This document shows, one piece after another, positions 1 through 40,100 of a DNA stretch of 64,000 nt. This DNA is from a virus. Lineage: Duplodnaviria > Heunggongvirae > Uroviricota > Caudoviricetes. Both the position numbers and the translations under genes were made by a program. Within the stretch, counting starts at the first letter, position 1; the number at the start of each line of letters is the position of its first letter. The stretch lies in the IMG/VR virus record IMGVR_UViG_3300034106_001169; one strand, 5' to 3'. Below the pieces are notes generated by a model. The model worked only from the letters and a program-made list of their open reading frames with translations, was not told the origin of the DNA and made no database searches.

Positions 1-998
1 TAGCTACAGGACTAATAACTATACCACCAAATGGATGGGGTGCTGTAGAAAGACTTATATGGGCTTACAAAGATAGACTAAGTAAGTTAGGTCATAATGT
101 AGAGGTTAAATATATGAATGAGCTAGAGAAATGGCCTGATACAATTGTACACGCTCACCTAGCTAATCAAGCTTTATATTGTAGAGATAAAGGTATACCT
201 TATGTGTACTCTCTACATGACCACCATACAGAATGGTATGGTAAAGATAGCTGGGTGTATAAGCAAAATCTAGAAGCTATGAAGCATAGCATTATATCCT
301 TTACACATGCTGAGTATTTGATTGAATACTTTAGTGAGACTGATAAGTTATTCTATCTACCACATGGTGCTGACACTGCATTCTTTACTCCTGACTATCC
401 TCCTAAGACACACTCTTTATTGATGATAGCTAATAATGGATTAGCAGGTGACAGTGGCTTTGATAGAAAAGGATTTAGATATGGTATAGAGGCAGCTGAA
501 GAGTTAGACCTACCTATCACTATAGCTGGACATCCTGACAACCAAAAGTTCTTTGACATCCATTCAGAGCTATTACAATACAAAAAGTTAACTTTAAAGT
601 TAACAAACCCTACAGATGATGAGACTAGAGATTTATATCAATCTCATAGTATATTCTTACATCCATCTATGCTAGAAGCAGGACATCCTAATCTAACATT
701 AATGGAAGCAACAGCATGTGGTATCCCTATTGTAGGAACTTATAAAGGTTCTAGACATATGGATGGTATGTGGGTCTTACCAAACATCAGTACAGATGCT
801 GTTATCAAAGGTGTTAAAGAAGTTATTAAAACTTATGACCATAGAAAGAATGAAGTGTTAGCTGCACGTGATAGTAGAGATTGGTTCCATGTGGCTAAGA
901 CTCTTGAGAAGTTCTACATTAATGTATTAAAGATTAATGAAGGATATACATCAGAAAGAACACAACAATTATACATAAACACATACAATAATTTATGA
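1..998 (+). CDS. Glycosyltransferase, GT4/GT-B-fold family, 5' partial (reading frame +3 is open from the window start; listed Met at 114 is internal)
   Basis: Translation upstream of 114 continues in frame without a stop (…ITIPPNGWGAVERLIWAYKDRLSKLGHNVEVKYMNE…). C-terminal half has the retaining-GT4 signature EAGHPNLTLMEATACGIPIVGT (E-x7-E-like). Stop overlaps the next start (ATGA). Confidence 0.7.
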   Translation, partial: ATGLITIPPNGWGAVERLIWAYKDRLSKLGHNVEVKYMNELEKWPDTIVHAHLANQALYCRDKGIPYVYSLHDHHTEWYGKDSWVYKQNLEAMKHSIISFTHAEYLIEYFSETDKLFYLPHGADTAFFTPDYPPKTHSLLMIANNGLAGDSGFDRKGFRYGIEAAEELDLPITIAGHPDNQKFFDIHSELLQYKKLTLKLTNPTDDETRDLYQSHSIFLHPSMLEAGHPNLTLMEATACGIPIVGTYKGSRHMDGMWVLPNISTDAVIKGVKEVIKTYDHRKNEVLAARDSRDWFHVAKTLEKFYINVLKINEGYTSERTQQLYINTYNNL

Positions 999-1576
999 GA
1001 CTAGAAGTTATTTCTATAGCAGATTTTTATAACAATGTAGATGAAGTGAGAAAGTTTGCTATGGAACAAGAGTATAGAGAAGAACCAGATCATTTTCCAG
1101 GAAGAAGAACAGTTCCATTCTTAAATGATAGTACAAAAGAAATTATTAAAGATGTATTAAGACCAATGTGTGGAGAAGTTACTTGGTGGGGAGGCAAAGA
1201 CTCTGGTTGTTTTCAATATACCACTGCTACTGACAGATCTTGGATTCATTCTGATGGAACAACAATGTGGGCAGGAGTTATCTATTTAACTCCTGATGCT
1301 CCATTATCAGCAGGCACTGGCATATTCAGACATAAATCAACAGGATTAAAAGGATGGATACATACAGAACACACTGATGAAGAAAATACTAATTGGTTAA
1401 ACAGTAATGAGAGTTATGATTATACAAAATGGGATATGGTAGATAAGATTGGTAATGTTTATAATAGACTTATTATGTATAGAGGTGACTTGTTCCATGT
1501 ATCTTTAGACTATTTTGGAAAAGATATAAATGATGGCAGATTATTTCAAACCTTCTTTTTAAACACAGAGAAATGA
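995..1576 (+). CDS. Hypothetical protein, possibly a cupin/2OG-oxygenase-like fold (HSD…H)
   Basis: 193 aa, translationally coupled to flanking genes. It has IHSDG and FRHKSTG, a candidate HxD…H metal triad with short spacing. No firm family assignment from sequence alone. Confidence 0.3.
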   Translation: MRLEVISIADFYNNVDEVRKFAMEQEYREEPDHFPGRRTVPFLNDSTKEIIKDVLRPMCGEVTWWGGKDSGCFQYTTATDRSWIHSDGTTMWAGVIYLTPDAPLSAGTGIFRHKSTGLKGWIHTEHTDEENTNWLNSNESYDYTKWDMVDKIGNVYNRLIMYRGDLFHVSLDYFGKDINDGRLFQTFFLNTEK

Positions 1577-2637
1577 TAACATATAAAATATTACATATCA
1601 ATGGTTTACACTTTGAACTAGTGGATGATGGGGGAAAAGGTAGAGAATACGATGTAAGCTTTGTAGATGGTAATACAACTATCTATGAAACTAAAATGAA
1701 GAAAGGTGGATGGTCTAGGCTTAATAGAAAGTATCTATCTAACATAGCCATATTTATTAAGTACCAAGGACGTATAGTGTTACAGATTAATCTATTAGAT
1801 GAACTAGTAGGTAAGAGAGTATTTATTGTCTTTGAGTCTAAGAGTCTTGGAGATAGTATAGCTTGGATGCCATACTGTTTAGCCTTTCAAGAGAAGTATA
1901 AGTGCCACGTTGTGGTGTCTTCTTTTAAGAATGAGTTATTTGAATCTGTATATCCTGAGCTAGAGTTTGTAGAAAGGGGAGTGGTGGTACATAATATAGT
2001 GGCTCAAGTAGAGCTTGGCTGGTTTTGGGAGAAAGATAAAGAGCCTACGCATCCTGCCACTATACCATTACAGCAAGCAGCTAGTAATGTATTAGCTCTA
2101 GAATTTGAAGAGATACAACCTAGGATAGCATTTACACCAGGAGAAAGACCAATAGATAGTAAGTACATATGTATATCTACTAGATCTACAGCACAGTGTA
2201 AGCATTGGTATTATTGGCCAGAGTTAATTCAGGCTCTAAAAGATATAGGATATAGAGTGATAGAACTATCACAGGAGGCAGATGACTTAGGAGCAGAGAA
2301 GCTAGAAGATAAGTCTCTTAATGTAGCTATGAACTATCTACATCATGCAGATATATTTGTTGGTTTATCTAGTGGTATCAGTTGGTTAAACTGGGGTATA
2401 GGTAAGAAGACAGTGATGATTAGTAACTTCACTACACCAGACCATGAGTTTCAATCTAACTGTATACGCATAGTTAATAAAGACGTATGCAATGGCTGTT
2501 GGAACAATCCTGTGTTCAAGTTTAATAAAGGGGATTGGAATTGGTGTCCTGAGCACGAAGATACACCTAGACATTTTGAATGTCACAAATCTATTAGTAT
2601 GACCACTGTATTAAACACAATAAAAGAAAACCTATGA
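1573..2637 (+). CDS. Protein O-glycosyltransferase of the autotransporter-adhesin heptosyltransferase family (TibC/Aah/BAHT-like)
   Basis: 354 aa. Blocks match TibC as I recall it: KRVFIVFESKSLGDSIAWMPYCLAF, SKYICISTRSTAQCKHWYYW, LKDIGYRVIELS and FVGLSSGISWLNWGIGKKTVMISNFTTPDHEF. The C-terminal Cys cluster CNGCWNN…WCPEHEDTPRHFECHK matches the Fe-binding Cys cluster in TibC. Confidence 0.55.
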   Translation: MITYKILHINGLHFELVDDGGKGREYDVSFVDGNTTIYETKMKKGGWSRLNRKYLSNIAIFIKYQGRIVLQINLLDELVGKRVFIVFESKSLGDSIAWMPYCLAFQEKYKCHVVVSSFKNELFESVYPELEFVERGVVVHNIVAQVELGWFWEKDKEPTHPATIPLQQAASNVLALEFEEIQPRIAFTPGERPIDSKYICISTRSTAQCKHWYYWPELIQALKDIGYRVIELSQEADDLGAEKLEDKSLNVAMNYLHHADIFVGLSSGISWLNWGIGKKTVMISNFTTPDHEFQSNCIRIVNKDVCNGCWNNPVFKFNKGDWNWCPEHEDTPRHFECHKSISMTTVLNTIKENL

Positions 2638-3278
2638 ACCAGCAAGAAAATATATTAACAATATTCCCAACTATAATTTATACTAACAAAATAAATAGGG
2701 AATTTACAAAAGATGAATTAAACTGTATATTAGGTTATTATGATAAAGCAAATGCTACAGCACATGATATTTTATCTACAGATATGAATGTTCTTGACAA
2801 TGAAAAGTTATCAGATATAAAAGCTTTTTGTCAAGAAATGTTAGATGATTTCTTCTTAAAAGTATACAACCCAATTAATCCAAACAATGTAAGATTAAAA
2901 CTTACACAGTCTTGGTTAAATTTTATATATGGTGATAGACACCATGAGAGTCACAAACACCATAATTCATTTATGAGTGGAGTAATTTATATCAATGCTT
3001 ATAAAGACAAAGATTCTATTATATTTACAAAACCAGATACTGATTTTAACTGGCACATACAACCTAAAGAGGCAACTAAATATAACTATAGCCATTCTCA
3101 TCATGCTGTTAACACAGGTGATATAATTATATTTCCAGCTAACTTGTATCATAGCACACCTGTAAACACTAACAACTACGTTAGAATTAGTCTAGCTTTT
3201 AGTTCTTTTTTAACAGGAACTATAGGTTATGTTGAAGGACCACTTACAGGTATTAACCAATTAAAACTAAATTTATGA
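2634..3278 (+). CDS. 2OG-Fe(II) oxygenase, PF13759/TIGR02466-like (paralog 1)
   Basis: TQSWLNFIYGDRHHESHKHHNSFMSGVIYIN … IIIFPANLYHSTPVNTNNYVRISLAFSS. This is the HxH…H plus RISxSFN pattern typical of the small phage and cyanobacterial 2OG oxygenase family. Confidence 0.65.
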   Translation: MNQQENILTIFPTIIYTNKINREFTKDELNCILGYYDKANATAHDILSTDMNVLDNEKLSDIKAFCQEMLDDFFLKVYNPINPNNVRLKLTQSWLNFIYGDRHHESHKHHNSFMSGVIYINAYKDKDSIIFTKPDTDFNWHIQPKEATKYNYSHSHHAVNTGDIIIFPANLYHSTPVNTNNYVRISLAFSSFLTGTIGYVEGPLTGINQLKLNL

Positions 3279-3901
3279 AACTAAATACACTTCAACTATT
3301 TCCAACTCCCTTGATGACATTTGGACTTGAAAGAGATTTTACAAAAGAGGAATTAGATTATGTACATAGTCAAGAAATGGGAATTAGTATTGGTAATGAA
3401 GGTTCTTATAATCATAGAGTACTAGAAAACCCTATTATGGCAAATCTTAAAAAGTTTGCACAAGATGCTTTAGATCAATATTTTGAGGAGATTTATTCAC
3501 CAGCAAGACCAGAAGAAGTAAGATTAAAACTAACTCAATCATGGACAAACGTAACAGAACCAGGTGAAAACCACCATATACATTATCATCCTAATAGTGT
3601 AATAAGTGGAGTTATTTATATTAATGCAGATATAAATGATGATGAAATTGTTTTTTCAAATGTAAAAGAAACGATATGGGAATTTGTAGTAAAGAATAAG
3701 AATGCATACAACTCTCGTCAATATCATCTTCCTGTTTCAACAGGATTTATGGTTTTGTTTCCATCACAAATGTTTCATGGAGTTCCAGAAACCAAAAGCA
3801 AAACTGCTAGAATAAGTTTAGCCTTTAACTCTTTCTTTGAAGGTAAGCTTGGTATTGAGAACGATGGTGTGAATTATTTAGAAATAAATAATACAGTGTA
3901 G
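3275..3901 (+). CDS. 2OG-Fe(II) oxygenase, PF13759/TIGR02466-like (paralog 2)
   Basis: TQSWTNVTEPGENHHIHYHPNSVISGVIYINAD … LFPSQMFHGVPETKSKTARISLAFNSF. Same architecture as 2634..3278; tandem duplicate. Confidence 0.65.
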   Translation: MKLNTLQLFPTPLMTFGLERDFTKEELDYVHSQEMGISIGNEGSYNHRVLENPIMANLKKFAQDALDQYFEEIYSPARPEEVRLKLTQSWTNVTEPGENHHIHYHPNSVISGVIYINADINDDEIVFSNVKETIWEFVVKNKNAYNSRQYHLPVSTGFMVLFPSQMFHGVPETKSKTARISLAFNSFFEGKLGIENDGVNYLEINNTV

Positions 3902-4714
3902 CTATTTGTTATATTTGAAATACTTAAAGAACCAATCATAGTTTTTATATACCCAATCACATGCAGGCCTACCTATAATTTGTTCAGCTTGTGATTCCTT
4001 TTTCTTAACTACATTTCTAATCTCATGACTTGCAAAATAGAATATATCATTCTCTTTTGTAGTTTGTTCTATGTTATTAAAATCATGTTGGAAGTATGGT
4101 ATTTCTAAGTAGTTATAAACCCTAGCCATCTCTCTATTAGGATCTTCGCAAAAGTCTTCATACTTAATAAACAATATTTTAGAGTCAAGTCTAAAGTTAA
4201 TAATATCTTTGACAGCATCAAATACAACACCAATAGGATTTGTTTTACTCCAATCTATTATTCTCTTTTCCATTGTTGTATTCTTCAAATCAGACCAACT
4301 TATTAATGGATTTATTGTCAATGGATTTCTTCTATAGTTAGATTCAAAGGACGCAAATACATCTCTTGGGTCTCTAATCATACTTACAATCTTAGGATCT
4401 TTTCCATTAATACTTTTTAATAAATCAAAGTTCATTCCCCAATAGAAACTCTTATCTACAAAATAAGGCTTATCTGAAATTGAATTAGCATATCCTTTTA
4501 TTCCTTCTCTACAGAAAGACAATACAGCCTTTTCCATAACGTTAACATCTTGAGCTTTGAACTCAGCTAATATGAACTTTTCCTTTATTGACTGCAAGAA
4601 TTCAACCACACCACTTGTAGGAGTGGCATACATATCAGGATTTTGATTAAATACATTTTGTAATAATGTGCTTCCAGATCTGGGCAAGCTGCTATTATAA
4701 AATATCTCTTGCAT
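3902..4714 (-). CDS. Sulfotransferase (PAPS-dependent family)
   Basis: N-terminal LPRSGSTLL (5'-phosphosulfate-binding P-loop-like PKSGTT motif) and IVSMIRDPRDVFAS (3'-phosphate-binding RDPRD motif). Its stop abuts the stop of the convergent + strand gene at 3901. Confidence 0.65.
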   Translation of the reverse strand: MQEIFYNSSLPRSGSTLLQNVFNQNPDMYATPTSGVVEFLQSIKEKFILAEFKAQDVNVMEKAVLSFCREGIKGYANSISDKPYFVDKSFYWGMNFDLLKSINGKDPKIVSMIRDPRDVFASFESNYRRNPLTINPLISWSDLKNTTMEKRIIDWSKTNPIGVVFDAVKDIINFRLDSKILFIKYEDFCEDPNREMARVYNYLEIPYFQHDFNNIEQTTKENDIFYFASHEIRNVVKKKESQAEQIIGRPACDWVYKNYDWFFKYFKYNK

Positions 4715-5235
4715 TATATTGTTGTTGGTTTTGATGTATTAAAAGTTAAACTCATCTTTAAATCATTTCCTACATTCTTTGGTTCATAATATAATAAATG
4801 AGATGGGAATAATAATAAGTCACCTCTTTTTACACTAATTGTTTCTTTAACTTCTGGAAAAACAATTGTATGAAAGTTTGCACTAGCATTAACATAGAGT
4901 ATGCCAGTTATTAAACTGTTAGGATGATTGTGAGATTGATGCTCTTCGCTTGGCATTGTAAAATTTAGCCAAGACTCTGTAATGTAAATGTTAGCATCAT
5001 TAATGTATTTGTTTAAAGAACTTAAACAAAAAGATTTAATATCAATTAGTTCAGATTTGTCTAATACAGTTATGCATTTAGTTTTTGAATTTCCTAAATC
5101 TGATTCAATGTTTGCAATATTTTGAGTATAGCCAACAAAAATATCCTTCTCTTCCCTTGTAAACTTTCTATCTAAGCTAAGCTTAGAAATAAGAGACTGC
5201 ATATATTCTATTTGTAGTGTTCTCCTCCCACCCAT
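4714..5235 (-). CDS. 2OG-Fe(II) oxygenase, PF13759/TIGR02466-like (paralog 3)
   Basis: TESWLNFTMPSEEHQSHNHPNSLITGILYVNAS … LLFPSHLLYYEP … LKMSLTFNTS. Listed start overlaps the upstream gene by 28 nt; the internal Met (MQSLISK, about 5202) is a likelier start. Confidence 0.6.
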   Translation of the reverse strand: MGGRRTLQIEYMQSLISKLSLDRKFTREEKDIFVGYTQNIANIESDLGNSKTKCITVLDKSELIDIKSFCLSSLNKYINDANIYITESWLNFTMPSEEHQSHNHPNSLITGILYVNASANFHTIVFPEVKETISVKRGDLLLFPSHLLYYEPKNVGNDLKMSLTFNTSKPTTI

Positions 5236-5804
5236 AGTACGAAAGAACGTCTAGTTCCTTTAGTTACTTTGGTAACTCTGTGCATCATATAAGAAGGGAA
5301 TATAAATACAACACCTTTACCTCTTGGTGCTTTACTAGCTTTTTCAGGATCTCCTCCTCTAAAGTATTCTAAATCACCACCTTCATATTCATCAGAATCA
5401 GATAGTTGTACAGTAATACTTATCTTTCTTTTGGACATTTCATCTGGACCAATATCTTGGTGCCATGCATAATGTCCTCCTTTATCAGCATAATATTCTG
5501 TGTATTGAATATGATCTATTAAACTATGTAAATCAAAATGCCAAATTGCATTATTGGCTTCTATAACCATGTTCATTAGCTTTTCATAAAGCCATCCCCA
5601 TTGTTCATTTGGTGGAATCCATTTAATAGAAGATGATCTAATGTCTAAATTTTCTTCATCATTTCCTATAATTGCTTTTTGAAATGGAATTATTGCAACT
5701 CCATTATAAATTTTGTCTAGTTCTTCTGTAGAAAATCCTTGATTAAAGAAATAATAATTTTGTGAGTCACAAGTGTGCTTTGGAAAAACAATAGAGGTGT
5801 TCAT
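5208..5804 (-). CDS. Prolyl-4-hydroxylase-like 2OG-Fe(II) oxygenase (PF13640-type)
   Basis: HYAWHQDIGPD (HxD), MMHRVTKV (distal His) and GTRRSFVLWV (RxS 2-oxoglutarate-binding motif) in the order and spacing typical of P4H/PhyH-type enzymes. Confidence 0.7.
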   Translation of the reverse strand: MNTSIVFPKHTCDSQNYYFFNQGFSTEELDKIYNGVAIIPFQKAIIGNDEENLDIRSSSIKWIPPNEQWGWLYEKLMNMVIEANNAIWHFDLHSLIDHIQYTEYYADKGGHYAWHQDIGPDEMSKRKISITVQLSDSDEYEGGDLEYFRGGDPEKASKAPRGKGVVFIFPSYMMHRVTKVTKGTRRSFVLWVGGEHYK

Positions 5805-5829
5805 TATTTAAATTTTAGATAGAACAAAG

Positions 5830-6897
5830 TTAAGCATTATTTTCTAATATCTGCAACTTTTCATCTAATTCTTGTATAGCTTTCATTAAAATACCTAAAC
5901 TAGAAGGTATAACTATTTGATCATGAGCACTAGTAGCTAACTCTTCTCGTGTTTCTTCAGCAATAAAACCTATATGTGTTTCACCTTGAAGATCAGCATC
6001 TTCAAATTCAAAAGATATAATATCTGTATCATTAATTATTTCTAATGCAGATTTAGCAAATGGCTCAATGTTTTTCTTAATTTCTCTAGTAGAGGCTGGG
6101 AAGAAGTTACCCCCTCCTGCACCAATGCCTCCATTACTATACCATTGAGAAGATGAGTTATTATAGAAATAAACTGAACCATTTATACACCCCCTAACAC
6201 CTCCAAAATTATTCATGTTGTTAGCCATGTAAACTTGTCCACTAACATAAATAGAATTGAATGTAGGATTATCACCATAGTTTAGTGATTGACCATTTGT
6301 ATTTGAAGGACCTTGTGGACCTGTAGGGCCTGTTGGGCCTGTAGGACTAGCACCAGCAGGTCCTGTAGCACCTGCAGCTCCTTGTGGACCTTGTGGTCCT
6401 GTTCCACCATTAACACCACTAGTACCTGATGAACCTCTAGGTCCTAATGCACCTTGTGGACCAGTAAGACCTTGTGGTCCTTGTGGACCTGTGGGACCAT
6501 TGGCACCAGCTAGACCAGAGTTACCACTCGAAGCAGATAAGCCAGAGCTTCCACTTGTAGCAGCTACACCTGAAGAACCACTTGAGCCTGATGTACCTGC
6601 AGAACCTGATTCTGCAGATAATACTGAAGCACCACTAGTTCCTGCAGAGCCACTTGTTCCAGAGGTTCCAGAGGTTCCTGATGTTCCATATGCTCCTGTT
6701 AATTCAACAGTCCAAGAATTAAATGTTCCTGAACCATTTGATTCTAAAGGAGTTATAATTAATGTACCTGTGCTAGGATTATATGACACTACTCTTCCAA
6801 TAACATAATTGGTAGAGTTAGCACTAACTTGTACAAAATCATTTGTTACAAATGAAAGATTTGTAGTTACAGTGAATGTCAAATTTGAATAAGGCAT
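5830..6897 (-). CDS. Collagen-like triple-helix tail fibre with C-terminal intramolecular chaperone (peptidase S74-like) domain
   Basis: N-terminal module [10 protein letters not shown]…SWTVELTG. Gly-X-Y repeats run for about 165 residues (GTSGTSG…[16 protein letters not shown]…). C-terminus is [12 protein letters not shown]…IGFIAEE…[13 protein letters not shown], with the Ser…Lys dyad and layout of endosialidase-type self-cleaving chaperone domains. Confidence 0.8.
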
Positions 6898-6907
6898 TAT
6901 TTATTAA

Positions 6908-7270
6908 TTACTTTTGTAAAAATGGTGAATTGATTACAACAATACTAGGTGTAACTCTTTCTTGTATTCTTTTTAACACTTTGTTTTTAATCCAATCAAC
7001 ATTTCTTTGCTTCTTGTTTTCAGAAGCTTCCACCCATTTTTCAACAATTTCTGGAGTTAACTGATCATATGATGTAAAATTAGAATTTTCATCAAACTCT
7101 ATGAGAGTTACACCACTCCAAAAGTCTTTGAAAGATGTTCCAGTTTCATCAATGTATTCTCCATGTAATGAGAATCCTATTTTTGTAACTACGTTAACTT
7201 GATCTTTTAAAGATGGAACTACATGAAGCTGAGTTAATTCCCAAGTGTATTTGATATCATTTATTGTCAT
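6908..7270 (-). CDS. Hypothetical protein between fibre genes
   Basis: 120 aa ORF filling the gap between two fibre genes with 2 to 10 nt spacing. No recognisable motif. Confidence 0.4.
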   Translation of the reverse strand: MTINDIKYTWELTQLHVVPSLKDQVNVVTKIGFSLHGEYIDETGTSFKDFWSGVTLIEFDENSNFTSYDQLTPEIVEKWVEASENKKQRNVDWIKNKVLKRIQERVTPSIVVINSPFLQK

Positions 7271-7272
7271 AT

Positions 7273-8328
7273 CTATTTATTTTGTAAGTTTTTAATTTTC
7301 TCATCTAGCTCTTGAATTGCTTTCATAGCTACACAAATTGTGGAAGGAATAACCATTTCATCATGATCTGAAGAAGACATCTCAATAGGAGTTTCTTCAG
7401 CAATAAATCCTATTTTAACTAAATCTGTATAATGTGTTTCGCCTTCATATTTAAATGAAACAATTTCTGTTTGGTTAATTAGATCAAGTCCAGATTTAAT
7501 AAATGGTTCTATGTTCTTTTTAGCTTCTCTTGTAGATGTACCAAAGAAATAAGCAGAACCAATTGAGCCATAAGAAAACCAATTTGAACCATTACCATAC
7601 CAACTTACACCTTGGTTTGCACTATTAGAAACTTTTGGACATATATAATTACCTCCAGCATTTGATTGCGTCATAGCCATTCCACCAAAGTTTACATTAG
7701 CACCTGTAGTTAATCCTTGGTTATAAACTGTTTGAGGTCCTTGTCCTCCTGGAGCTCCTGTTGGTCCTGTATTGCCTGGATTTGCTGGTCCTTGTGGGCC
7801 TGTTGGACCTTGAGGACCTTGTGGTCCTGTGGCACCTGTTGGTCCATTATTCCTAGAAAGACCTGATGTTCCTGAAGAACCTGTGGCACCTGTTGGTCCT
7901 TGTACACCTTGAGGGCCTGTTGGTCCAATAGCACCTGATGTGCCTGCTGAACCTGACGTGCCTGCAGTGGCACTAGAACCAGATGTACCAGCTGTTCCAC
8001 TTGATCTACTTAAACCATCAGAGCCTGATGTTCCAGAAGTACCAGAACTTCCAGCATCACCAGATGTAGCACTTGTTCCACTAGAGCCTGATGTTCCTGA
8101 TGTTCCATTTGTTCCAGATGAACCAGCATTGCCTGTTAATTGAACGTTCCATATTGAATATGATCCACTACCTACAGATTTAACTGGGGTGATTACCATA
8201 ACACCTGTTACATCACTATACGAAACCACTGTACCAATAACGTAGTTATCTGCATCATAGCTTAGTTGCACAAAGTCTCCTGCTACATAGCTTAGTCTAG
8301 GTGAACAATTAAAAGTTGCGTTAGGCAT
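7273..8328 (-). CDS. Collagen-like tail fibre with C-terminal S74-like intramolecular chaperone domain
   Basis: MPNATFN…SIWNVQLTG N-module, long Gly-X-Y run (GTSGSSG…GPTGPQGVQGPTGATG…), C-terminal TSTREAKKNIEPF…[11 protein letters not shown]…ELDEKIKNLQNK. Confidence 0.8.
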   Translation of the reverse strand: MPNATFNCSPRLSYVAGDFVQLSYDADNYVIGTVVSYSDVTGVMVITPVKSVGSGSYSIWNVQLTGNAGSSGTNGTSGTSGSSGTSATSGDAGSSGTSGTSGSDGLSRSSGTAGTSGSSATAGTSGSAGTSGAIGPTGPQGVQGPTGATGSSGTSGLSRNNGPTGATGPQGPQGPTGPQGPANPGNTGPTGAPGGQGPQTVYNQGLTTGANVNFGGMAMTQSNAGGNYICPKVSNSANQGVSWYGNGSNWFSYGSIGSAYFFGTSTREAKKNIEPFIKSGLDLINQTEIVSFKYEGETHYTDLVKIGFIAEETPIEMSSSDHDEMVIPSTICVAMKAIQELDEKIKNLQNK

Positions 8329-9322
8329 TGTTATTTTTATTTTGTAGAGCTGTTACTCTATTATCAATTTCTTGAATTGCTTTTAATACAACTGCTAATG
8401 TATTAGTTGTATCCATTACGTTATGATCTGGAGTTGCTAATTCTTCTGGAGTATCTTCTGCTATGAATCCAATATGTTCAATTTGTGTATGTTCTCCACT
8501 TTCAAAATCCCAAGTGACTATTTCTGTGCTCTTTATAATTTCTGTAGCATCTTTAGTGAATGGTTCAATTTCTTTTTTCATACTTCTTGTAGAAGAGTTA
8601 AAGAAAAATGCACCACCTAAGCCAGCATTACTTGCCCAACCAAAGTTAAATCCAAACCATACAGGACCATATGTACCTGCAATTCCTTTATATGCATCAC
8701 CAGGCATATAAAATCTATAAGCAGTTTGCCAAGTTGTGGTTGAAGTTGGATATGTAAATGTTACATCTCCTCCAACATTAAGGTTTTGGTTATAGCTAGC
8801 TGATGTACCTGTAGGTCCTTGTGGTCCTGTTGCACCAGTTGGACCTTTAGGTCCTTGAGGTCCTTGAGGTCCTGTAGGACCTGTAGGTCCTGGGGCTCCT
8901 GTTGGACCTGTAGCTCCAGCTGAACCTGATGTTCCACTAGAACCACCTACTCCTGTTGGACCTTGTGCTCCTACAGCACCCTGAGGACCTGTACCACCTT
9001 GTACAGCACTTGTTCCTGAGGAACCAGATGTACCAGATGTTCCTGAAGACCCTGAGCTTGCTGACGTACCAGCTGAGCCTGAAGTTCCAGATGATCCTGA
9101 AGTTGCAGATGTACCATGTGTACCTGAGCTTGCTGAAGAACCACTAGTACCACTTGTGCCAGAACTAGCAGATGCACCAGAGGTTCCATTCTTACCAGCC
9201 AATTCAACGTTCCATGTATTGTATGATCCTGCATCACCTGTGTATTCAAGTGGGGTTACCACTAAACTACCAGTGACATCATCATAACTTACAACTCTTC
9301 CATGTATAAATGCATTAGCCAT
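8321..9322 (-). CDS. Collagen-like tail fibre with C-terminal S74-like intramolecular chaperone domain
   Basis: VVSYDDVTGSLVVTP…TWNVELAG N-module, Gly-X-Y run, C-terminal SSTRSMKKEIEPF…IGFIAEDTPEE…EIDNRVTALQNK. Overlaps the upstream gene by 8 nt. Confidence 0.75.
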   Translation of the reverse strand: MANAFIHGRVVSYDDVTGSLVVTPLEYTGDAGSYNTWNVELAGKNGTSGASASSGTSGTSGSSASSGTHGTSATSGSSGTSGSAGTSASSGSSGTSGTSGSSGTSAVQGGTGPQGAVGAQGPTGVGGSSGTSGSAGATGPTGAPGPTGPTGPQGPQGPKGPTGATGPQGPTGTSASYNQNLNVGGDVTFTYPTSTTTWQTAYRFYMPGDAYKGIAGTYGPVWFGFNFGWASNAGLGGAFFFNSSTRSMKKEIEPFTKDATEIIKSTEIVTWDFESGEHTQIEHIGFIAEDTPEELATPDHNVMDTTNTLAVVLKAIQEIDNRVTALQNKNNNA

Positions 9323-9336
9323 AATTTCTTTTTATT

Positions 9337-9729
9337 TTATATTGCACAAGTTAATGAACAATCTGTTCCAGCTGATGCTGCACCTGTTAAATCAACAACA
9401 GGTGTCCCTGCTCCTGTACCAAAGTTAACTTTATATACAAATCCATCACCTATGTTATAATAAAAACCATTAGTTTTTAATGTTGGAGAAACTGCAAGTA
9501 ATCCTGTTGAGAATGTTCCACATCCAGGACAATTGATTTTATCTACATCATAATAATATACAGCTGCAGTAGTAGTTGTAGTTGTTGTGGGTGTAGCAGT
9601 TGTGGTCGTTGTAGTTGTAGGTGTTGCAGTGGTTGTTGTGGTAGTAGTGGGTACATACACGTTTACAAAATCATTTGCAACAAATCTTAAACCTGGCTGA
9701 ACTTGGAATGTTAAATCTGCGTATGGCAT
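9337..9729 (-). CDS. Short fibre-related protein: fibre N-terminal motif, poly-Thr linker, small Cys-containing C-terminal domain
   Basis: MPYADLTFQVQPGLRFVANDFVNVYVP matches the start of the fibre N-module. Then (TTTTTTTATP)x3 encoded by a tandem ACN repeat at about 9590..9665, then a roughly 70 aa domain with CPGCG. Confidence 0.45.
   Translation of the reverse strand: MPYADLTFQVQPGLRFVANDFVNVYVPTTTTTTTATPTTTTTTTATPTTTTTTTAAVYYYDVDKINCPGCGTFSTGLLAVSPTLKTNGFYYNIGDGFVYKVNFGTGAGTPVVDLTGAASAGTDCSLTCAI
9590..9665 (-). repeat. Tandem 30-nt ACN-rich repeat encoding (TTTTTTTATP)x3
   Basis: Three near-identical units seen directly in 9337..9729; a slippage-prone tract. Confidence 0.6.
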
Positions 9730-9732
9730 AAC

Positions 9733-11334
9733 TTATGTTAAAGGTAAGGTTTGTGTTGTTCCTGAAGTTCCATTATATGTTGATGAATCACCAGAGGTTG
9801 CTGCAGTTCCTGAAGAAGCTGAAGTACCTGATGTTCCACTTGATCCACTAGAAGCACTTGTACCTGAACTACCATCTGTTCCATTAGTTCCACTTGATCC
9901 AGATGTAGCTGAGCTACCACTAGTTCCTGATGAGCCATCAGTTCCAGAACTACCACTCGATGCTGAAGTACCTGAAGTACCACTCACACCAATGAAGTTG
10001 AAATAGAATGCATCGTTAGCACTAGGATCTGGACCACCACTAGCAAGTTGTGTTACAGTGTAATCTTCATAGCCTGATACAAAAGGTGTATTACTTACAA
10101 TTCTTAAAAACTTATAAGTTGCAACATTACTTGAGCTTTGTAATTTAATAATTGAGTTTGCTCCAATAAAGTTTAAATATGTAGAGAAGTTTACATTTGG
10201 ATTGTATGCAGTGTCACTGATGGCAATATTTGTTACAGTTTCACTCCAAGAGTTAATATCTAATCTAAAGAATGTACTACCTGGGTTTACAGATGTGTCA
10301 GGATTTATACTATATAACCACTCTGCTAAGAATCCATCAGCACCTTGGTTACCACTTGTACCAGCTGAAGCTGATGTTCCTGAACTAGCACTTGTTCCAG
10401 ACGTACCACTTGACCCATCTGTTCCTGACGTACCTGTAGTACCACTAGAGCCATCTGTTCCAGATGTTCCACTTGACGCAGATGTACCAGACGTACCATT
10501 AGTTCCAGACGTTCCAGAAGAACCATCTGTACCTGAAGTACCATCACCTCCTGCAGCTCCTGCAAGGTTTACTTCCCAAACAGCAAATGTACCAGATCCA
10601 TTAAATGAATCTATAGTTAATACCATAGCACCTGTTGCTGAATTATAAGAAGTAACAAAACCAATCATGTCGAAGCCTACAGAGTAAGCAACAACCACAC
10701 CTTGACCAATTGTATATGCCAGTCCTAAACCAACAGTTAAATTTTGAGTGCCAACAGCTAATGTTAAACTAGTAGTAGATGTAGTCTTATATAAGTCACC
10801 AGAGTTACCAGATGTAGCTGCAGTTCCTGAGCTTCCACTTGTGCCACTACTTCCATCAGTTCCACTTGTTCCACTAGATCCATCAGTGCCACTAGTGCCT
10901 GAGCTTCCATCAGTACCTGTAGTTCCAGACGTACCAGAACTTCCATCAGTGCCTGATGTACCAGAGCTACCATCTGTACCACTTGTTCCAGAGGTTCCAC
11001 TAGACCCATCAGTTCCACTAGTTCCTGATGAACCAGAGGTACCAGAAGATCCATCTGTTCCAGAAGATCCATCAGTACCAGTTGTTCCACTTGTACCACT
11101 TGTTCCACCTGTTCCACTAGAACCTGAGACAGCAGATGCTACGACAGTCCATGTATTGAATGTACCAGCACCTAAGTAATTGGTAGGATAGAAAACAAAG
11201 ATTCCTGTTACAGGATCATATGTAACCACTTGACCAAAGATGTAGTTGTTCTCATCATGTATCACTTGGACATATTGTCCAGGATAGAATGATCTACCAG
11301 TTTCAATGGTTATGGTAATATTAGCGTAAGGCAT
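9733..11334 (-). CDS. Collagen-like fibre protein (two Gly-X-Y segments, each preceded by a copy of the about 55 aa N-module; no S74 domain)
   Basis: MPYANITITI…NTWTVV, then GSSGTGGTSG…(GTDGSSGTSG)n. A second module, LAYTIGQGVVVAYS…VTSYNSATGAMVL…AVWEVNLAG, is followed by more Gly-X-Y. C-terminal region is non-collagenous and Ser/Thr-rich. Confidence 0.75.
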   Translation of the reverse strand: MPYANITITIETGRSFYPGQYVQVIHDENNYIFGQVVTYDPVTGIFVFYPTNYLGAGTFNTWTVVASAVSGSSGTGGTSGTSGTTGTDGSSGTDGSSGTSGSSGTSGTDGSSGTSGTSGTDGSSGTSGTDGSSGTSGTTGTDGSSGTSGTDGSSGTSGTDGSSGTSGSSGTAATSGNSGDLYKTTSTTSLTLAVGTQNLTVGLGLAYTIGQGVVVAYSVGFDMIGFVTSYNSATGAMVLTIDSFNGSGTFAVWEVNLAGAAGGDGTSGTDGSSGTSGTNGTSGTSASSGTSGTDGSSGTTGTSGTDGSSGTSGTSASSGTSASAGTSGNQGADGFLAEWLYSINPDTSVNPGSTFFRLDINSWSETVTNIAISDTAYNPNVNFSTYLNFIGANSIIKLQSSSNVATYKFLRIVSNTPFVSGYEDYTVTQLASGGPDPSANDAFYFNFIGVSGTSGTSASSGSSGTDGSSGTSGSSATSGSSGTNGTDGSSGTSASSGSSGTSGTSASSGTAATSGDSSTYNGTSGTTQTLPLT

Positions 11335-11360
11335 TTATATTTATTTTATATTTTATAATT

Positions 11361-13148
11361 TTAACAAGCTACACAACTACCTGTGAATGTCATTAATGTT
11401 ATTCCTGCACCTGGAACTTTGTAAACTTGTCTAAAATTAGTTCCATCAGAAACATAAGATGTACCTCCACTTAAAGGGTCAACATCAGGGGAATCAAAAG
11501 AGGTTGAATCACAAAGACCTGTTCCACCATTATAAGTAACTGATGTTAATATAAAGAAAGGTCCAGATTGTGTACAAGCATTAGGACCACTAATTGAAGA
11601 AAAAATCAATGTTGGACCTGGAGCAGCTGTTGTTGTAGTAGATGTTGTACTTGTTGTTGTAGCTTCAGCAGGAGGAATAGTAATTGTACTACCACTTGTA
11701 CCAGCCATCAATGTAGAAATACCTGATGTTGCTGCTGTACCACTAGAACCATCTGTACCTGTAGTTCCTGAAGTTCCACTAGATCCATCTGTACCACTGC
11801 TACCATCTGTTCCTGTTGTGCCTGATGTACCTGAAGAACCATCAGTTCCACTTGTTCCAGTTGTTCCAGAGCTTCCATCAGAACCTGATGTACCTGAAGT
11901 CCCACTTGAACCATCTGTTCCTGTAGTACCACTAGATCCTGATGTACCAGAAGATCCATCTGTGCCACTTGTTCCTGTTGTACCACTTGTACCATTTGAT
12001 CCATCTGTACCACTAGTTCCAGAAGAACCAGATGTTCCAGAAGATCCTGATGTTCCACTAGAGCCATCAGTTCCAGAACTGCCACTTGTACCTGAAGAAG
12101 CTGAAGTTCCAGAAGAACCATCAGTTCCTGTTGTACCAGATGAGCCATCTGTACCAGTTGTACCTGAAGTACCTGTAGATCCTGAAGTACCTGTAGTACC
12201 ACTAGTTCCACTTGAACCTGATGTACCACTTGAACCTGCACCACCTGTGGCACCATTCAAGTTAATTTGCCATGAGCTATATGTTCCACCACCTATTATT
12301 ATTGTAGGAGCATCAAAATTAAGTGCACCTGTAGCACTGTTATAAGAAATTACATTACACTCTTGATAGTTGTTAATATCATGAGCAATAATAATTGCTT
12401 GACCAACAGTGTAAGCTAAACCAAGACTCACTTGTAAAGTACCAGCATTACCTAATGTGAATGTTTGTACTGAGAAGGTTGCATATCTATCACCTGTAAA
12501 ACCTGAAGATCCAGATGTACCAGCTGAACCTGAAACACCACCAGAACCACTTGAGCCTGATGTACCAGCACTGCCAGAAGTTCCTGTAGAACCTGACGTA
12601 CCACTAGAGGCAGATGAACCAGAAGTTCCTGCACTACCATCTGTACCAGCAGATCCAGATGTACCAGAAGAGCCAGAGGAAGCAGATGTTCCAGAAGAAC
12701 CTGAGGTACCATGAGAACCAGTTGTACCACTTGTGCCACTTGTACCATGAGAACCAGAAGTACCTGATGAACCTGCTGTACCAGCTGTACCATTTCTACC
12801 ACTAGACCCAGAACTACCTGAAGTGCCAGCTGTACCATTCCTTCCAGAACTACCAGAGGTAGCAGAAGTTCCACTTCTACCAGAAGAACCAGATGTTGCT
12901 GAGGTACCATTAGTACCACTTATTCCATTGGTTCCTGAAACTCCACTAGTTCCATTTCTTCCAGAAGAGCCACTAGTACCAGACGTACCATAGCCAGCTG
13001 ATGCAAAAGCTGCATCAATCTTCTCTAATGCTGTTTGTAAATTGTCGTTGGTATTTATACCAGAGTATACAAGATAGGGGCCTTCGTAGAATACGCAGGT
13101 CGAATCCAATATAACTGGACATGGGGTTGCAGAGCAAGTAACGTTCAT
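11361..13148 (-). CDS. Collagen-like fibre protein with Cys-rich N-terminus and C-terminal Thr-rich/Cys domain
   Basis: MNVTCSATPCPV… N-terminus, Gly-X-Y runs ([13 protein letters not shown]…), internal module LAYTVGQAIIIAHD…VISYNSATGALNF…SSWQINLNG, more Gly-X-Y, then TTSTTSTTTT and a Cys-containing C-terminus. Confidence 0.75.
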   Translation of the reverse strand: MNVTCSATPCPVILDSTCVFYEGPYLVYSGINTNDNLQTALEKIDAAFASAGYGTSGTSGSSGRNGTSGVSGTNGISGTNGTSATSGSSGRSGTSATSGSSGRNGTAGTSGSSGSSGRNGTAGTAGSSGTSGSHGTSGTSGTTGSHGTSGSSGTSASSGSSGTSGSAGTDGSAGTSGSSASSGTSGSTGTSGSAGTSGSSGSGGVSGSAGTSGSSGFTGDRYATFSVQTFTLGNAGTLQVSLGLAYTVGQAIIIAHDINNYQECNVISYNSATGALNFDAPTIIIGGGTYSSWQINLNGATGGAGSSGTSGSSGTSGTTGTSGSTGTSGTTGTDGSSGTTGTDGSSGTSASSGTSGSSGTDGSSGTSGSSGTSGSSGTSGTDGSNGTSGTTGTSGTDGSSGTSGSSGTTGTDGSSGTSGTSGSDGSSGTTGTSGTDGSSGTSGTTGTDGSSGTDGSSGTSGTTGTDGSSGTAATSGISTLMAGTSGSTITIPPAEATTTSTTSTTTTAAPGPTLIFSSISGPNACTQSGPFFILTSVTYNGGTGLCDSTSFDSPDVDPLSGGTSYVSDGTNFRQVYKVPGAGITLMTFTGSCVAC

Positions 13149-13196
13149 AGTGATAATGTGTTATGTGTAATCTATTGATATACAAAGAAGTGCATC

Positions 13197-13230
13197 AAAC
13201 TTATAGAATGTGCACTAATTATAGCAAAAA
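13197..13230 (-). promoter_or_regulatory. Candidate Bacteroidota-type sigma-A promoter (-33 TTTG / -7 TAnnTTTG) upstream of fibre gene 11361..13148
   Basis: Minus-strand reading: TTTTTG, a 21-nt spacer, TAAGTTTG, then about 45 nt to the ATG. This is one of the few intergenic gaps over 100 nt (13149..13300). Confidence 0.3.
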
Positions 13231-13300
13231 TAGTGAATTTAATTTATTTTCAATGAGTTAGGAAAATTATTCCTACATAATATAGCAATAACTATACTGT

Positions 13301-37191: not shown

Positions 37192-40100
37192 TTAAAGACA
37201 TGGTACTCCAGCACAAGATGTTACTGGTGTTGAAAATAAACCAACTGATCCTTGAATTCTTCTATATCCATTAGCTGCACCTCCATAGTAACCAGCAGGA
37301 GCAGGTATAGTTAAAAACTGATCTACATACATAACTGACGCATTGTCAAAATATGGAACACCATTGTCATCTACCCAGAATTGAGTCACTAAAGTATATC
37401 CTGATGGTACAGGAACTATTGGAAGTTCTGAAAATATAAATGCACCAAAACTATCTACATATATTAACTTTTGTATACAACAAATACCAGTGTTAGCAGC
37501 ATCTGTTTCATTATAACCAATAGCACTTGCATCAATAGCTACATATGTAGGTGCTGGTGGTAATGTAGTAGTTGTAGTAGTAGTTAGTGTTCCACATTCA
37601 GCTATACCTGTTACTTCGCCATCAAAACCTGTTACTTCATAAGTACAGTTACTTAAAGGAATATTACATGGTCTAGCATAGAACCCAGCAGGAGCAGGAT
37701 TTCCAACACTAGGTAAAGAATAGAAATGACTTCCTAATACAATAGGAGTTTCAACTACTAATACATATACAGTTGTGAGAACATTAAGTTCATAATTATC
37801 ACAAGCTTGGTTTGGATCAAATGCATTAAAACCATATTCTATAGTTGTCCATTCAGATTGTGTTGTACTAGTACTTGTAGTAGTTGTTATATCACCACAT
37901 TGACCAACTTGACTTATAATAGCTAAACTGCCTTCTAAAACATTAGGTGAATAACCATCACATAAACATGCACTTCCTGATTCACCTTCATTTAATACTG
38001 AACTTTGATTATTACCATTACAATCTGTCCACTGTACTATTGCACCTGTTGCACCTGCTGTAAAGTACCAATTGAAACAACCAGCCCCTGCACCAATTGA
38101 TTGACAATAAGTTAAAGTGGTAGTAGTGGTAGTTGTAGGAGGAGGAGTTGTTGTAGTTGTGGTTGTAGGAGGAGGAGTAGGGGTTGTTGTAGTCGTGGTA
38201 GTTGGTGGTGGAACATATGTAGCTGTACCATTTAAAGCACACTCTAATGGAACTGGTGTAGTAGTAGTTGTAGTGGTTGGAGAAGGTATCTCTGTAACAG
38301 CTACTGCTGATAATTCACATCCTTCATTTAATCCAGAATAGTAGAAACCATTTTCTCCTATGTAGAAATTAGGTATGTATGTATGGAAACTTACCCAAGC
38401 TTTGGTGTTCATGTTAAATGATGCAGTCCATGACTTATTGCAGAAGTATTCTACATCTGTTAGATTTACATATCTTATAACTGATGTATTACCAGCCACT
38501 GGTTGATTTATATAAAACTTCTGTAAAGCTTCATTATAGTATATTTGCTTATTAGGTTGAGGGATATAATCTAACTTAGTTATAATTATTCTCTCAAACT
38601 TACTATCATATACACCATGTAAACCAAGACCATTGAAGTGGTTATCTATATTTGCTGTAGGGAAGTGTCTTAATATTTCAAATGCTAAATGGTCTGTAAA
38701 GAACCTGTTTAGACCACTACCAAACGCTGAGATATCTATTGCTTTAGTAGCACCAGCTATCAAAAATATTTGACCTCTCTTAGCATCTATTGTTATTTGT
38801 CCATCAGGTATTTTAAGTAAGAACTTGTTTTGAGAACCTACATAACCTAGGTCAGTTTCAGCATAATCAATTGCAGGAGCTGATGTAAATAATGTAGGAT
38901 TACCTAAGAACGCTGCCTGAGGACTACTTGTGTTCATTGTCAATAAGTTACCATAAAGCAATGACTTGTTTTCAAATCTAGCTAGGGTAGCTTTATTCTG
39001 TATACCATCTAGTGATACTAACTTACCATAGTTCTGAGGGAAGTCAAAAAAACTTATTGGACGATATATCAACCAATTGTTAATTCTATTATCAGAATAA
39101 CTTTCTTGTGGATCAGAGTATATAGCTCTGAATGGGAAGTATGTAAAGCAAAGTTGCTTTATCCAGTCTGAAGGTAAATGAGAGAAAAAGTTCTCTGTGT
39201 TTTGTTTAGAGAAAGTGGTATTATAATAGTATGTGTTATCAAGTGCAATAGGAACTCTGCTTTCTTGGAACCAAGTATCAGGAATACCTGAGCTCACGTG
39301 TGGGTAGAAATCACCCTCTAGGTTATTAAATGCCTGACGTAAGTCTACATTAATAGAACTCTCTACATAGAAGTAAGGAATACCATAAGCAAATAGATAC
39401 ATCTTACCATCATAGATATAGTTTTGTGAACCAGCTAATACAGTACCTGGAGCAGGAGTTGTAGAAGAGGTAGTGGTAGTTGTACTAATATTATCCACTA
39501 TATAATCATTAGGACAGTCTAAATAGTGAGCTTTGGTAGAAATGATATTCTTCATTAAAGTACCACCTACAAAGTAATCAGATAATTCAGATCTAGCAGA
39601 ATACCAATATTGTGGATAGGCTACATTACCTAACTCATCGTAGTAAATGTCACTATCATCAGGAGCTCCCACTCTATTATCAATAAAGAAAGGAAGCTTA
39701 GTTTTGAATCCAAACTTACCAATATATGTATCACCACCAAATATTACTTCAGTGGCTGGAAGAGAACTAAATATTCTTTGGAATCCTGTATCAATTGTTT
39801 GATAAGAATATATTTGTCCCCATTGATTATTATTAATAGCCTTTATTGAAGCATAATAAGATACAACTTTTATATCTTCTTGCTGTTCAGGAGCACTACA
39901 GTTATTTGCTTGAGAAATAGTAAATCTTGAATTATCAGATATCTGACTTACACCTGCTATGTATAAAGAAGGAGTTTGATTAGGGAATGGTAGAGGATTT
40001 ACAACTACTCCTGATCTAGCTTCAATAGTTTTAGTATATATTGAAGACTCTCTATTAAAGTTATTAAGATCATGATTATCACCTACATTCTGTACACCTG

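Follow-up and report, generated by a model that had tools for sequence, protein, structure and literature searches.

Does a tailed phage modify its own collagen-like fibres after they are translated? This question was raised by the first 5804 positions of the window, which is the whole stretch of 64,000 nucleotides analysed here (IMG/VR virus record IMGVR_UViG_3300034106_001169). An island of eight enzyme genes lies there directly beside genes for Ser/Thr-rich collagen-like fibres, and an earlier note on this DNA had proposed that the enzymes act on these fibres. Judged from sequence homology and gene neighbourhood, it is fairly likely that the phage modifies its own fibres post-translationally, by glycosylation. 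The listing of open reading frames (ORFs) contained all eight enzyme genes where the note had placed them, and the Pfam, PHROG and TIGR matches agreed with the families it had assigned.

1..998 (ORF from 3), + strand: GT4-family (GT-B) glycosyltransferase (GT); PF00534 at 38.6 bits, with matches to PF13692 and PF13439
995-1576, + strand: DUF6445 protein, a 2-oxoglutarate (2OG)-Fe(II) oxygenase; PF20043 at 46 bits
1573-2637, + strand: protein O-glycosyltransferase of the TibC/Aah type, like the bacterial autotransporter heptosyltransferases (BAHTs), phage subtype; TIGR04414 at 250.3 bits
2634-3278, + strand: PF13759 2OG-Fe(II) oxygenase with intact motif; PF13759 at 63.8 bits, phrog_81
3275-3901, + strand: PF13759 2OG-Fe(II) oxygenase with intact motif; PF13759 at 76.8 bits, TIGR02466 at 72.2 bits (cut-off 62.5)
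3902-4714, - strand: sulfotransferase of the 3'-phosphoadenosine-5'-phosphosulfate (PAPS) type; PF00685 at 65.7 bits (cut-off 22), PF13469 at 58.5 bits
4714-5235, - strand: PF13759 paralog, probably catalytically degenerate; partial match to profile positions 1-42 of 101
5208-5804, - strand: PF13640 2OG-Fe(II) oxygenase of the PKHD/PiuC type; PF13640 at 53.7 bits, phrog_61

The five + strand genes were translationally coupled, as had been read before, with an ATGA overlap at all four junctions between them. The other three genes converged on this block from the - strand, where they continued the run of fibre genes with gaps of at most 25 nt. The two blocks met at 3901/3902 with no intergenic base between the PF13759 gene and the sulfotransferase gene. 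No terminator-like hairpin was found at 3901/3902. A scan of positions 1-13400 for sigma-70 promoters and terminators gave sites no more numerous than in shuffled sequence, and it did not provide operon boundaries.

The first enzyme to be characterised was the product of ORF 1573-2637, which the note had called a TibC/Aah-like protein O-heptosyltransferase. The homology to TibC was upheld. The TIGR04414 match lay above the equivalog cut-off of 200 bits and spanned residues 27-352, and TibC (PDB 4rap) matched the ORF at E 5e-43. An AlphaFold (AF2) model was obtained with a predicted local distance difference test score (pLDDT) of 83.7 and a predicted template modelling score (pTM) of 0.83, and seven strands were present in residues 3-73. 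Foldseek aligned this model to 4rap with a template modelling (TM) score of 0.80 and E 4e-25, and the alignment included the N-terminal beta-barrel and the GT-B core. The lipopolysaccharide (LPS) heptosyltransferases gave TM scores of 0.47-0.50, and the next best match after TibC was WaaC at 0.47. The structure-based identity to TibC was only 28-29%, and homologs of the Burkholderia group were 31-33% identical. Functional residues were taken from the TibC structure paper (PMC4358343), in which Asp-110 is catalytic and Thr-226, Lys-230 and Trp-305 contact the beta-phosphate and the sugar, and they were checked in an alignment of 163 phage homologs. W305 and the four cysteines of the iron finger were invariant in all 163 homologs. 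D110, T226 and K230 were invariant in 162 homologs, and the 163rd had a gap. The equivalents in the window protein were D94, T206, K210 and W271, with the cysteines at C306, C309, C325 and C337 (TibC Cys-339, 342, 358 and 370). The catalytic and contact residues were also kept in 142-149 of 150 representatives of the family. In addition, position 300 was Ser, as in Aah. By sequence and model, ORF 1573-2637 is a genuine TibC/Aah-type relative with a competent-looking active site.

In bacteria, BAHT genes precede the gene of their substrate, and the natural acceptors of TibC are beta-helices (PMC4358343). No autotransporter lay beside ORF 1573-2637, and the neighbour was a collagen-like fibre gene. 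The generality of this arrangement was surveyed in 104 loci (numbered with L), in which ORFs were called and classified within 10 kb on each side of the BAHT gene. A neighbour was counted as an S/T collagen when it had at least 60 Gly-X-Y (GXY) residues, with Ser or Thr making up at least 60% of the X and Y positions. When the BAHTs were clustered at 95% identity, 43 of the 58 clusters had such an ORF in the flank; clustering at 80% gave 36 of 47, and clustering at 65% gave 15 of 21. The note had suggested a synteny check of whether homologous islands always travel with collagen-like fibres; they did so in 36 of the 47 clusters, which is frequent, though not always. The BAHT-collagen pairing is not a chance juxtaposition, because it recurs to this extent at 80% identity. 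The position of the partner was also regular. For 35 clusters, 5 kb or more of sequence was available on either side of the BAHT gene; 27 of these had the S/T collagen downstream and 4 had it upstream. The two genes converged in 74 of 75 cases, at a distance of 0.4-6.4 kb (median about 2.5 kb), and the convergent downstream collagen genes had 60-98% Ser/Thr at X/Y. The largest example was in L065, where a 3192-aa protein with 2862 GXY residues (94% S/T, 0% Pro) was encoded 407 bp from a GT4-BAHT fusion. The pairing also held in lineages that were just 37-50% identical, namely Microcystis phage Mel-JY01, contig L039 with a 2447-aa collagen, and the 735-kb megaphage LR756501. In Mel-JY01 (L001, PP395634.1) the collagen-like ORF at 2-3052 on the + strand encoded about 1016 aa, with 606 GXY residues and 40% Ser+Thr overall. 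It is unannotated, and GenBank has a 'hypothetical protein' on the opposite strand at 739-2298. As this ORF touched the start of the record, a further part of it may lie at the opposite genome end.

The linkage was also examined in the reverse direction. Chunks of IMG/VR sequence (120 chunks, 1.03 Mb) were chosen solely for the pattern (GGN WSN WSN)8, and seven of them carried a BAHT gene, which was far above the chance expectation from the size of the BAHT family. A scan with the conserved 130-aa ORF of the fibre array, meant to sample relatives irrespective of BAHT, returned five loci, too few for a presence/absence test. These comparisons across many lineages agreed with the proposal that the enzymes act on the phage's own S/T-rich collagen-like fibres. 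Fibre glycosylation, as predicted from comparative genomics, appeared well supported.

The BAHT family was large. A word-indexed search gave 1,112 protein clusters at E <= 1e-10, and an exhaustive search of 1.84 billion representatives gave 1,346 members at E <= 1e-3. At least 555 IMG/VR contigs encoded a BAHT relative. In the isolate/GenBank phage collection a homolog was present in only four records, Mel-JY01 and three megaphage assemblies. A scan of cellular genome contigs returned nine loci. Four of these (L053, L054, L059 and L061) were short contigs of metagenome-assembled genomes of 1.8-4.2 kb, and most of the others were Burkholderia-group BAHTs with 31-33% identity; no informative cellular context was obtained. 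A GT1/GT4 domain was adjacent to, overlapping with or fused to the BAHT in essentially all lineages, and 132 of the best 150 BAHT representatives were fusion proteins longer than 420 aa. Besides GT4, the fusions included FkbM methyltransferase, GT25, GT32 and DUF6165 domains. Since the BAHT almost always comes with additional GT and methyltransferase domains, either coupled or fused, an oligosaccharide is implied and not single heptoses. DUF6165 was a recurrent companion of the BAHT, found in 51 loci (e.g. L065:11062-11442), and in L090 it formed the C-terminus of an FkbM-BAHT protein.

The presumed acceptors were then considered. The note had counted seven collagen-like fibre genes next to the enzymes. 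The adjacency stood, and the count was revised to five collagen-like genes accompanied by two other conserved ORFs, with a sixth collagen-like gene elsewhere in the window.

5830-6897, - strand: collagen-like fibre 1; PF01391 at 52.7 bits, PF13884 at 32.3 bits, tail-fibre PHROGs
6908-7270, - strand: DUF7936 small non-collagen protein; PF25590 at 50 bits
7273-8328, - strand: collagen-like fibre 2; 111 GXY residues, precomputed Collagen and S74 matches
8321-9322, - strand: collagen-like fibre 3; 81 GXY residues, precomputed Collagen and S74 matches
9337-9729, - strand: conserved 130-aa non-collagen ORF within the fibre array, 72-91% identical in relatives
9733-11334, - strand: collagen-like fibre 4; 186 GXY residues, tail-fibre PHROGs, 55 S-G dipeptides
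11361-13148, - strand: collagen-like fibre 5; 318 GXY residues, phrog_6320 at E 2.8e-51, 72 S-G dipeptides
49495-51114, - strand: sixth collagen-like fibre; 240 GXY residues, GTS and GPQ repeats mixed

Fibre 1 was composed, in order, of an N-terminal domain, GTS/GSS repeats, GPQ/GPT repeats and a C-terminal S74 intramolecular chaperone. Such a C-terminal chaperone is typical of tail fibres. S74 was identified by Pfam in fibres 1-3, and the S74-like C-terminus of the sixth fibre was judged by eye. In the Gly-X-Y runs, X was mainly Thr/Ser and Y mainly Ser, with 81-318 GXY residues per fibre. Fibre 4 was nearly pure (G-T/S-S/D)n (X = T41/S19, Y = S40/D14) and fibre 5 nearly pure (G-T/S-S/T)n (X = T59/S37, Y = S62/T13), and the repeats of both were Pro-free. 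GPQ/GPT stretches were present in fibres 1-3 and in the sixth fibre, with Pro confined to the X position. The G-P counts across the six fibres were 12, 11, 12, 1, 4 and 20, and P-G occurred only 0-5 times per fibre. The six ORFs contained 211 Ser-Gly dipeptides in total, and Lys was nearly absent from the repeats. From the long unbroken Gly-X-Y runs, the fibres are predicted to be collagen-like triple-helix proteins. The sixth gene is 36 kb away from the island; within the late operon it separates the head genes from those downstream of them, and its product is a possible further substrate. DUF7936 (about 120 aa) was kept in or beside the fibre arrays of L003, L004, L008, L013 (11459-11818), L015, L017 and L066, and might be a fibre assembly factor.

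The oxygenases were analysed for their motifs and for their relation to proline. The note had listed five 2OG oxygenases, and the fifth was confirmed as the DUF6445 protein by its HxD...H...R motif and its fold. H85, D87, H168 and R182 were invariant in 22 homologs. The AF2 model had a pLDDT of 76.6, and nearly all of its top 50 listed PDB matches were Fe/2OG oxygenases or proteins closely related to them, at TM scores of 0.45-0.55, among them a few uncharacterised 'putative oxygenase' entries. The structural neighbours included the sugar-acting HygX, EvdO1 and KanJ. By motif and model, DUF6445 is a bona fide 2OG oxygenase. The phrog_1644 label of this family, 'minor coat protein' (head and packaging), was contradicted by the fold and the motif and is probably an annotation error. 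Three PF13759 paralogs had been claimed. Two of them, 2634-3278 and 3275-3901, had an intact HxH...H...R motif in the alignment, and the nearest PDB entries of 3275-3901 were 3bvc and 2rg4, both uncharacterised. The third, 4714-5235, is probably catalytically degenerate, because the distal His was replaced by Tyr and the Arg by Lys, and about 20 residues were deleted. Its ortholog in L003 had additionally lost the HxH motif. For ORF 5208-5804, HQD...H...RR was visible in the sequence. The note had called it P4H-like (prolyl 4-hydroxylase). PF13640 does include P4H-like enzymes, but the ORF is not demonstrably a collagen P4H, and that reading was rejected. Its nearest solved relatives were the PKHD/PiuC hydroxylases (3dkq, PiuC), its homologs were also found beside Pro-free collagens, and the fibres contain almost no X-Pro-Gly.

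The occurrence of these genes was surveyed with hidden Markov models built from the window genes, and a collagen was called Pro-containing when it had at least 5% Pro at X/Y. DUF6445 together with PF13759 was present in seven loci, and all seven had a Pro-containing collagen. Neither was present in any of the 57 loci with Pro-free collagens, and three Pro-collagen loci were without them. The seven loci were interleaved members of the clade of the window and the independent lineage L102. In L102, a sulfotransferase and two PF13759 genes were on the strand of the Pro-collagen gene and followed downstream of it after two small ORFs. The link of DUF6445/PF13759 to Pro-collagens was suggestive and not more than that, because the locus counts are not phylogenetically independent.

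The sulfotransferase at 3902-4714 carried LPRSGST (5'-PSB-like) and RDPRD (3'-PB-like) motifs, which correspond to the PAPS-binding motifs of the family. A sequence search of the PDB gave just weak matches to cytosolic SULTs. The sulfotransferase occurred together with a phage kinase for adenosine 5'-phosphosulfate (APS) in 18 of 20 loci. This co-occurrence speaks for sulfation as a functional step that the phage supplies itself.

Based on these results, a mechanism can be proposed. Glycosylation would begin in the infected cytoplasm, where the BAHT-like enzyme would attach an initial sugar to the Ser of x-Ser-Gly within the (Gly-Thr/Ser-Ser)n repeats; it may act on Thr too. This sugar would probably be added before or during fibre trimerisation, with the donor nucleotide-sugar supplied by the host. 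The GT4 enzyme, together with a GT9 enzyme and an 887-aa GT encoded to the left of the window, would extend the glycan, and methyltransferases would decorate it in other lineages. The sulfotransferase, using PAPS from the phage APS kinase, would most likely sulfate the fibre glycan. DUF6445 and PF13759 would most likely hydroxylate residues of the Pro-containing (GPQ/GPT) fibres, with X-position proline as the best guess; oxidation of the glycan would be an alternative. By analogy with known collagens, Pro-poor repeats that are densely O-glycosylated would form a more stable and better hydrated triple helix. A (Gly-Pro-Thr)10 peptide is a random coil until Thr is galactosylated and is then triple-helical (PMC11923368), and glycosylated Thr replaces hydroxyproline in the cuticle collagen of Riftia and in BclA (PMC11923368, PMC8968730). 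The phage repeats have little or no proline, so glycosylation is plausibly needed for their stability. The glycan surface on the fibre could influence how the fibre binds receptors, resists proteases or sticks. A longer version of this proposal joins three steps, in which BAHT glycosylation folds Pro-free collagens of up to about 3,000 residues, DUF6445/PF13759 act as hydroxylases of X-position proline or of other residues, and the glycan is sulfated from PAPS. As a joint claim, this three-step pathway is doubtful.

Several observations weighed against fibre glycosylation or against parts of it. The whole case was built from homology and gene neighbourhood. In TibC, Arg-286 hydrogen-bonds the adenine N1 and thereby gives ADP specificity, the R286A mutation abolishes activity, and a beta-hairpin thumb (Phe-265/Val-266), called highly conserved in the family, builds the dodecamer; TibC requires both for its activity on autotransporters (PMC4358343). 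The window protein has Ala-252 at the Arg-286 position, each of the 163 phage homologs has V, A, T or I there, and Arg was retained in just 31 of the 150 representatives. The thumb columns were gaps in all 163 phage homologs, and the region had 16 residues in half of the representatives versus 25 in TibC. The Burkholderia-group homologs retained both features. ORF 1573-2637 is thus classed by sequence as a phage subtype of BAHT-like enzyme, thumbless and without Arg-286. As both are missing, its quaternary structure, donor and acceptor recognition cannot be assumed to be TibC-like. No heptose-pathway genes were seen in the island, and the 'heptosyltransferase' part of the earlier assignment was not justified. 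The acceptor residue is a further point. TibC modifies Ser in NSGG and VSGT contexts and does not modify Thr (PMC4358343). The linkage was also incomplete. Six of the 21 deep clusters had no S/T collagen within 10-15 kb, and 113 of the 120 S/T-collagen chunks had no BAHT in the short stretch retrieved. In one apparently negative lineage (L040-42), an S/T collagen (L136) was present at another place on the contig that carries L041. Many loci came from related phages that share part of their gene order by descent, which makes the counts non-independent. With respect to the oxygenases, the PF13640 gene was a frequent BAHT neighbour and lay beside Pro-free collagens in 12 loci, including L030-38. 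A homolog of 3275-3901 was found in 185 phage records, mostly cyanomyoviruses, and no Pro-collagen was found within 10 kb of PF13759 in S-B64, P-HM1, DSL-LC04 or a Manatee Spring podovirus. A PF13759-collagen link as a general rule was rejected: PF13759 occurred in cyanomyoviruses and two other phages without a nearby Pro-collagen, and therefore the proline link cannot be generalised and is limited to BAHT-bearing loci.

The island also holds LPS-type families (GT9 and GT2-like) that could act on host glycans. This leads to a different explanation, in which the enzymes remodel the surface glycans of the host (LPS, capsule or a host glycoprotein), block superinfection or the trapping of phages on debris, and lie beside the fibres incidentally. 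LPS and polysaccharide clusters typically contain members of the GT9, GT4, GT2-like and NoeE-like carbohydrate sulfotransferase families. The + strand block is opposite to the late operon and so may be expressed earlier, and the literature usually reads phage GT clusters in this way (PMC7029224, PMC10202952). However, the best-defined enzyme belongs to a family known solely as protein-Ser glycosyltransferases. Host-glycan remodelling would also leave unexplained why an S/T-rich collagen partner recurs across phages of very different size and architecture and why the oxygenases track the proline content of the collagens. We consider it unlikely. It is similarly improbable that the acceptor is another part of the virion, such as the 1668-, 3655- and 1892-aa late proteins, the capsid or the tail tube, with the island being a set of accessory genes at the end of the late operon. 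The island lies precisely where two transcription blocks converge, structural modules commonly end in fibre genes, and the beta-helix of the TibC acceptors is a fold common in phage tail proteins. In addition, five of the six deep clusters without S/T collagen (L040-42, L043, L045, L047 and L068) had no nearby collagen of any kind. Mycobacteriophage GTs are reported to modify capsid and tail tube. Against another virion acceptor, the S/T collagen is strongly asymmetric around the BAHT gene. The pairing recurs in jumbo and megaphage contigs that are laid out differently, and the enrichment was also observed when collagens were the starting point.

Hypermodification of phage DNA or nucleotides was the last explanation considered, with base hydroxylation followed by glycosylation as a defence against restriction. 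DNA hypermodification is carried out by phage GT-B enzymes and by 2OG oxygenases that belong to other families (Pyle 2024, cited in PMC12619734), and the PHROG labels of some homologs mention DNA endonuclease V. However, these labels look like annotation carry-over on PF13759 proteins, the family scans found no TET/JBP-type or DNA-binding domains, and the fold and residues of the BAHT are those of a protein glycosyltransferase. To our knowledge, a sulfotransferase with an APS kinase has no role in DNA modification. This explanation is very improbable. Glycosylation of the phage's own collagen-like fibres is the reading that we retain.

The window did not contain the entire island. The GT4 frame was open from base 3, which meant that the gene was cut by the window edge. 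The window was 100% identical over 12,637 bases to JGI 3300043539 Ga0453745_0000024 (113 kb), and over the same 12,637 bases to ENA ERZ27272060 k141_1192096 (96 kb). In the identical contig the full GT4 (L240 8413-9426) had 337 aa and began 15 nt outside the window on the left, and the + strand operon ran 5.5 kb further left in both contigs. The gene order left of the window was APS kinase, a 124-aa cytidylyltransferase-like protein, two PF13759 genes, a GT9 (312 aa) and the 887-aa GT1-domain protein. A divergent DUF6165 gene was located beyond the left end of the operon (L240:2520-2897, - strand). The full island thus has about 14 enzyme genes, including four glycosyltransferases, seven 2OG-oxygenase-like genes, the sulfotransferase and the APS kinase, and the window region is probably the right-hand two-thirds of the whole modification system. 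PDB sequence searches with the GT4 and the 887-aa GT were uninformative. The gene of the 124-aa protein (L240:3371-3745, + strand, 5.1 kb left of window base 1) overlapped the 3' end of the APS kinase gene. Its product matched PF01467 at 21.6 bits with a GRWQPWHAGH motif, and a homolog was found in 10 of the 20 APS-kinase loci. It could be a minimal adenylyl- or sulfuryl-transferase supplying PAPS synthesis.

The putative system was compared with known ones. It resembles the BAHTs TibC, Aah and BimC (PDB 4rap, 4rb4) in its fold, catalytic Asp, sugar contacts and four-Cys iron finger. The presumed acceptor, encoded by the adjoining gene, is likewise a fibrous surface protein that is long, repetitive and rich in Ser, and Ser-Gly, the site in TibC targets, is the commonest dipeptide of the phage repeats. 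It differs in being phage-encoded, in its collagen-like neighbour instead of an autotransporter beta-helix, and in the absence of the thumb and Arg-286. In mycobacteriophages, phage-encoded GTs beside structural genes O-glycosylate the phage's own virion proteins (Freeman 2023, cited in PMC12619734). There, the acceptors are the C-terminal tails of capsid and tail-tube subunits, the GTs belong to other families, and no collagen-like acceptor, BAHT, oxygenase or sulfation module is known to be involved. BclA of Bacillus, with GPT repeats, is O-glycosylated with rhamnose-anthrose oligosaccharides, and mimivirus encodes collagen together with modifying enzymes (PMC8968730). As in BclA, mimivirus and Riftia, the repeats here are Thr/Ser-rich Gly-X-Y, and O-glycosylation would take the place of hydroxyproline as stabiliser of the triple helix. 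However, the modification of BclA is carried out by host rhamnosyltransferases, and the L230 hydroxylase/glucosyltransferase of mimivirus acts on hydroxylysine, whereas the phage repeats, (G-T/S-S)n, carry Ser at Y and are nearly free of Lys. In contrast to all three, the system here belongs to a tailed phage with a bacterial host. The PF13759/PF13640 families (phrog_81, phrog_61; TIGR02466) are shared with cyanophages. In cyanomyoviruses, the PF13759 genes sit among auxiliary metabolic genes (psbA, hli) with no collagen gene nearby, whereas here the oxygenases are inside a glycosylation island, reach up to seven copies per genome and track the proline-containing fibres.

The note had considered a phage toolkit of this kind to be new. 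A literature search with incomplete coverage found no report linking TibC or BAHT to phages, and none linking phage collagen-like fibres to a dedicated glycosylation or modification island. This part of the claim stood, and the remainder was already known, namely BAHTs acting on autotransporters, virion glycosylation in mycobacteriophages, collagen modification in mimivirus and the glycosylation of BclA. If fibre glycosylation is correct, phage self-glycosylation, known from a few mycobacteriophages, would reach a large set of aquatic phages, most of them uncultured, given by the IMG/VR contigs above and including crAss-like, jumbo and mega phages. The virulence-associated bacterial BAHT family would gain collagen as a new substrate class, and the stability of very long, almost Pro-free collagen-like fibres would be explained. 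Receptor-binding fibres coated with glycan would be predicted, with a bearing on host range, on adhesion to mucus and particles, and on the expression of recombinant phage fibres or bacterial collagens. The modular pattern is testable, as a GT core with oxygenases accompanying Pro-containing fibres and a sulfotransferase accompanying APS kinase, and the core module is present in the cultured phage Mel-JY01. If the three-step pathway were also true, it would give a widespread 2OG-oxygenase family of aquatic phages its first function, and the glycan would be the first sulfated one of a phage virion.

The source phage is crAss-like. Its portal was 24-29% identical to those of crAssphage, a Flavobacterium phage and a Cellulophaga phage, and its major head protein matched phrog_11589. 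From this affinity, we infer that the host is probably a member of the Bacteroidota. A megablast search with positions 1-6000 against 50,697 phage records gave no match, and the phage was without a close cultured relative among them. The late ORFs at 13301-18307, 18307-29274 and 37192-42870 on the - strand encoded 1668, 3655 and 1892 aa and were nearly without family matches. Giant late ORFs with almost no family matches are typical of crAss-like phages. The closest isolate-phage homolog of PF13759 was at 5324-5944 of Phage DSL-LC04 (L242, OR003939.1), with 40% identity, and it was located inside a tail-fibre module. Its neighbours were an S74-chaperone protein, a lectin, a Gly-rich 561-aa protein and a 1365-aa ConA-like protein, and this context hints at a structural-protein target other than collagen. 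Just past the island in the identical contig, a PAS-domain protein was encoded at L240:1-472 on the - strand, and PAS sensor domains are uncommon in phages. A GH19 glycoside hydrolase, likely the endolysin, was encoded beside it at L240:492-1097.

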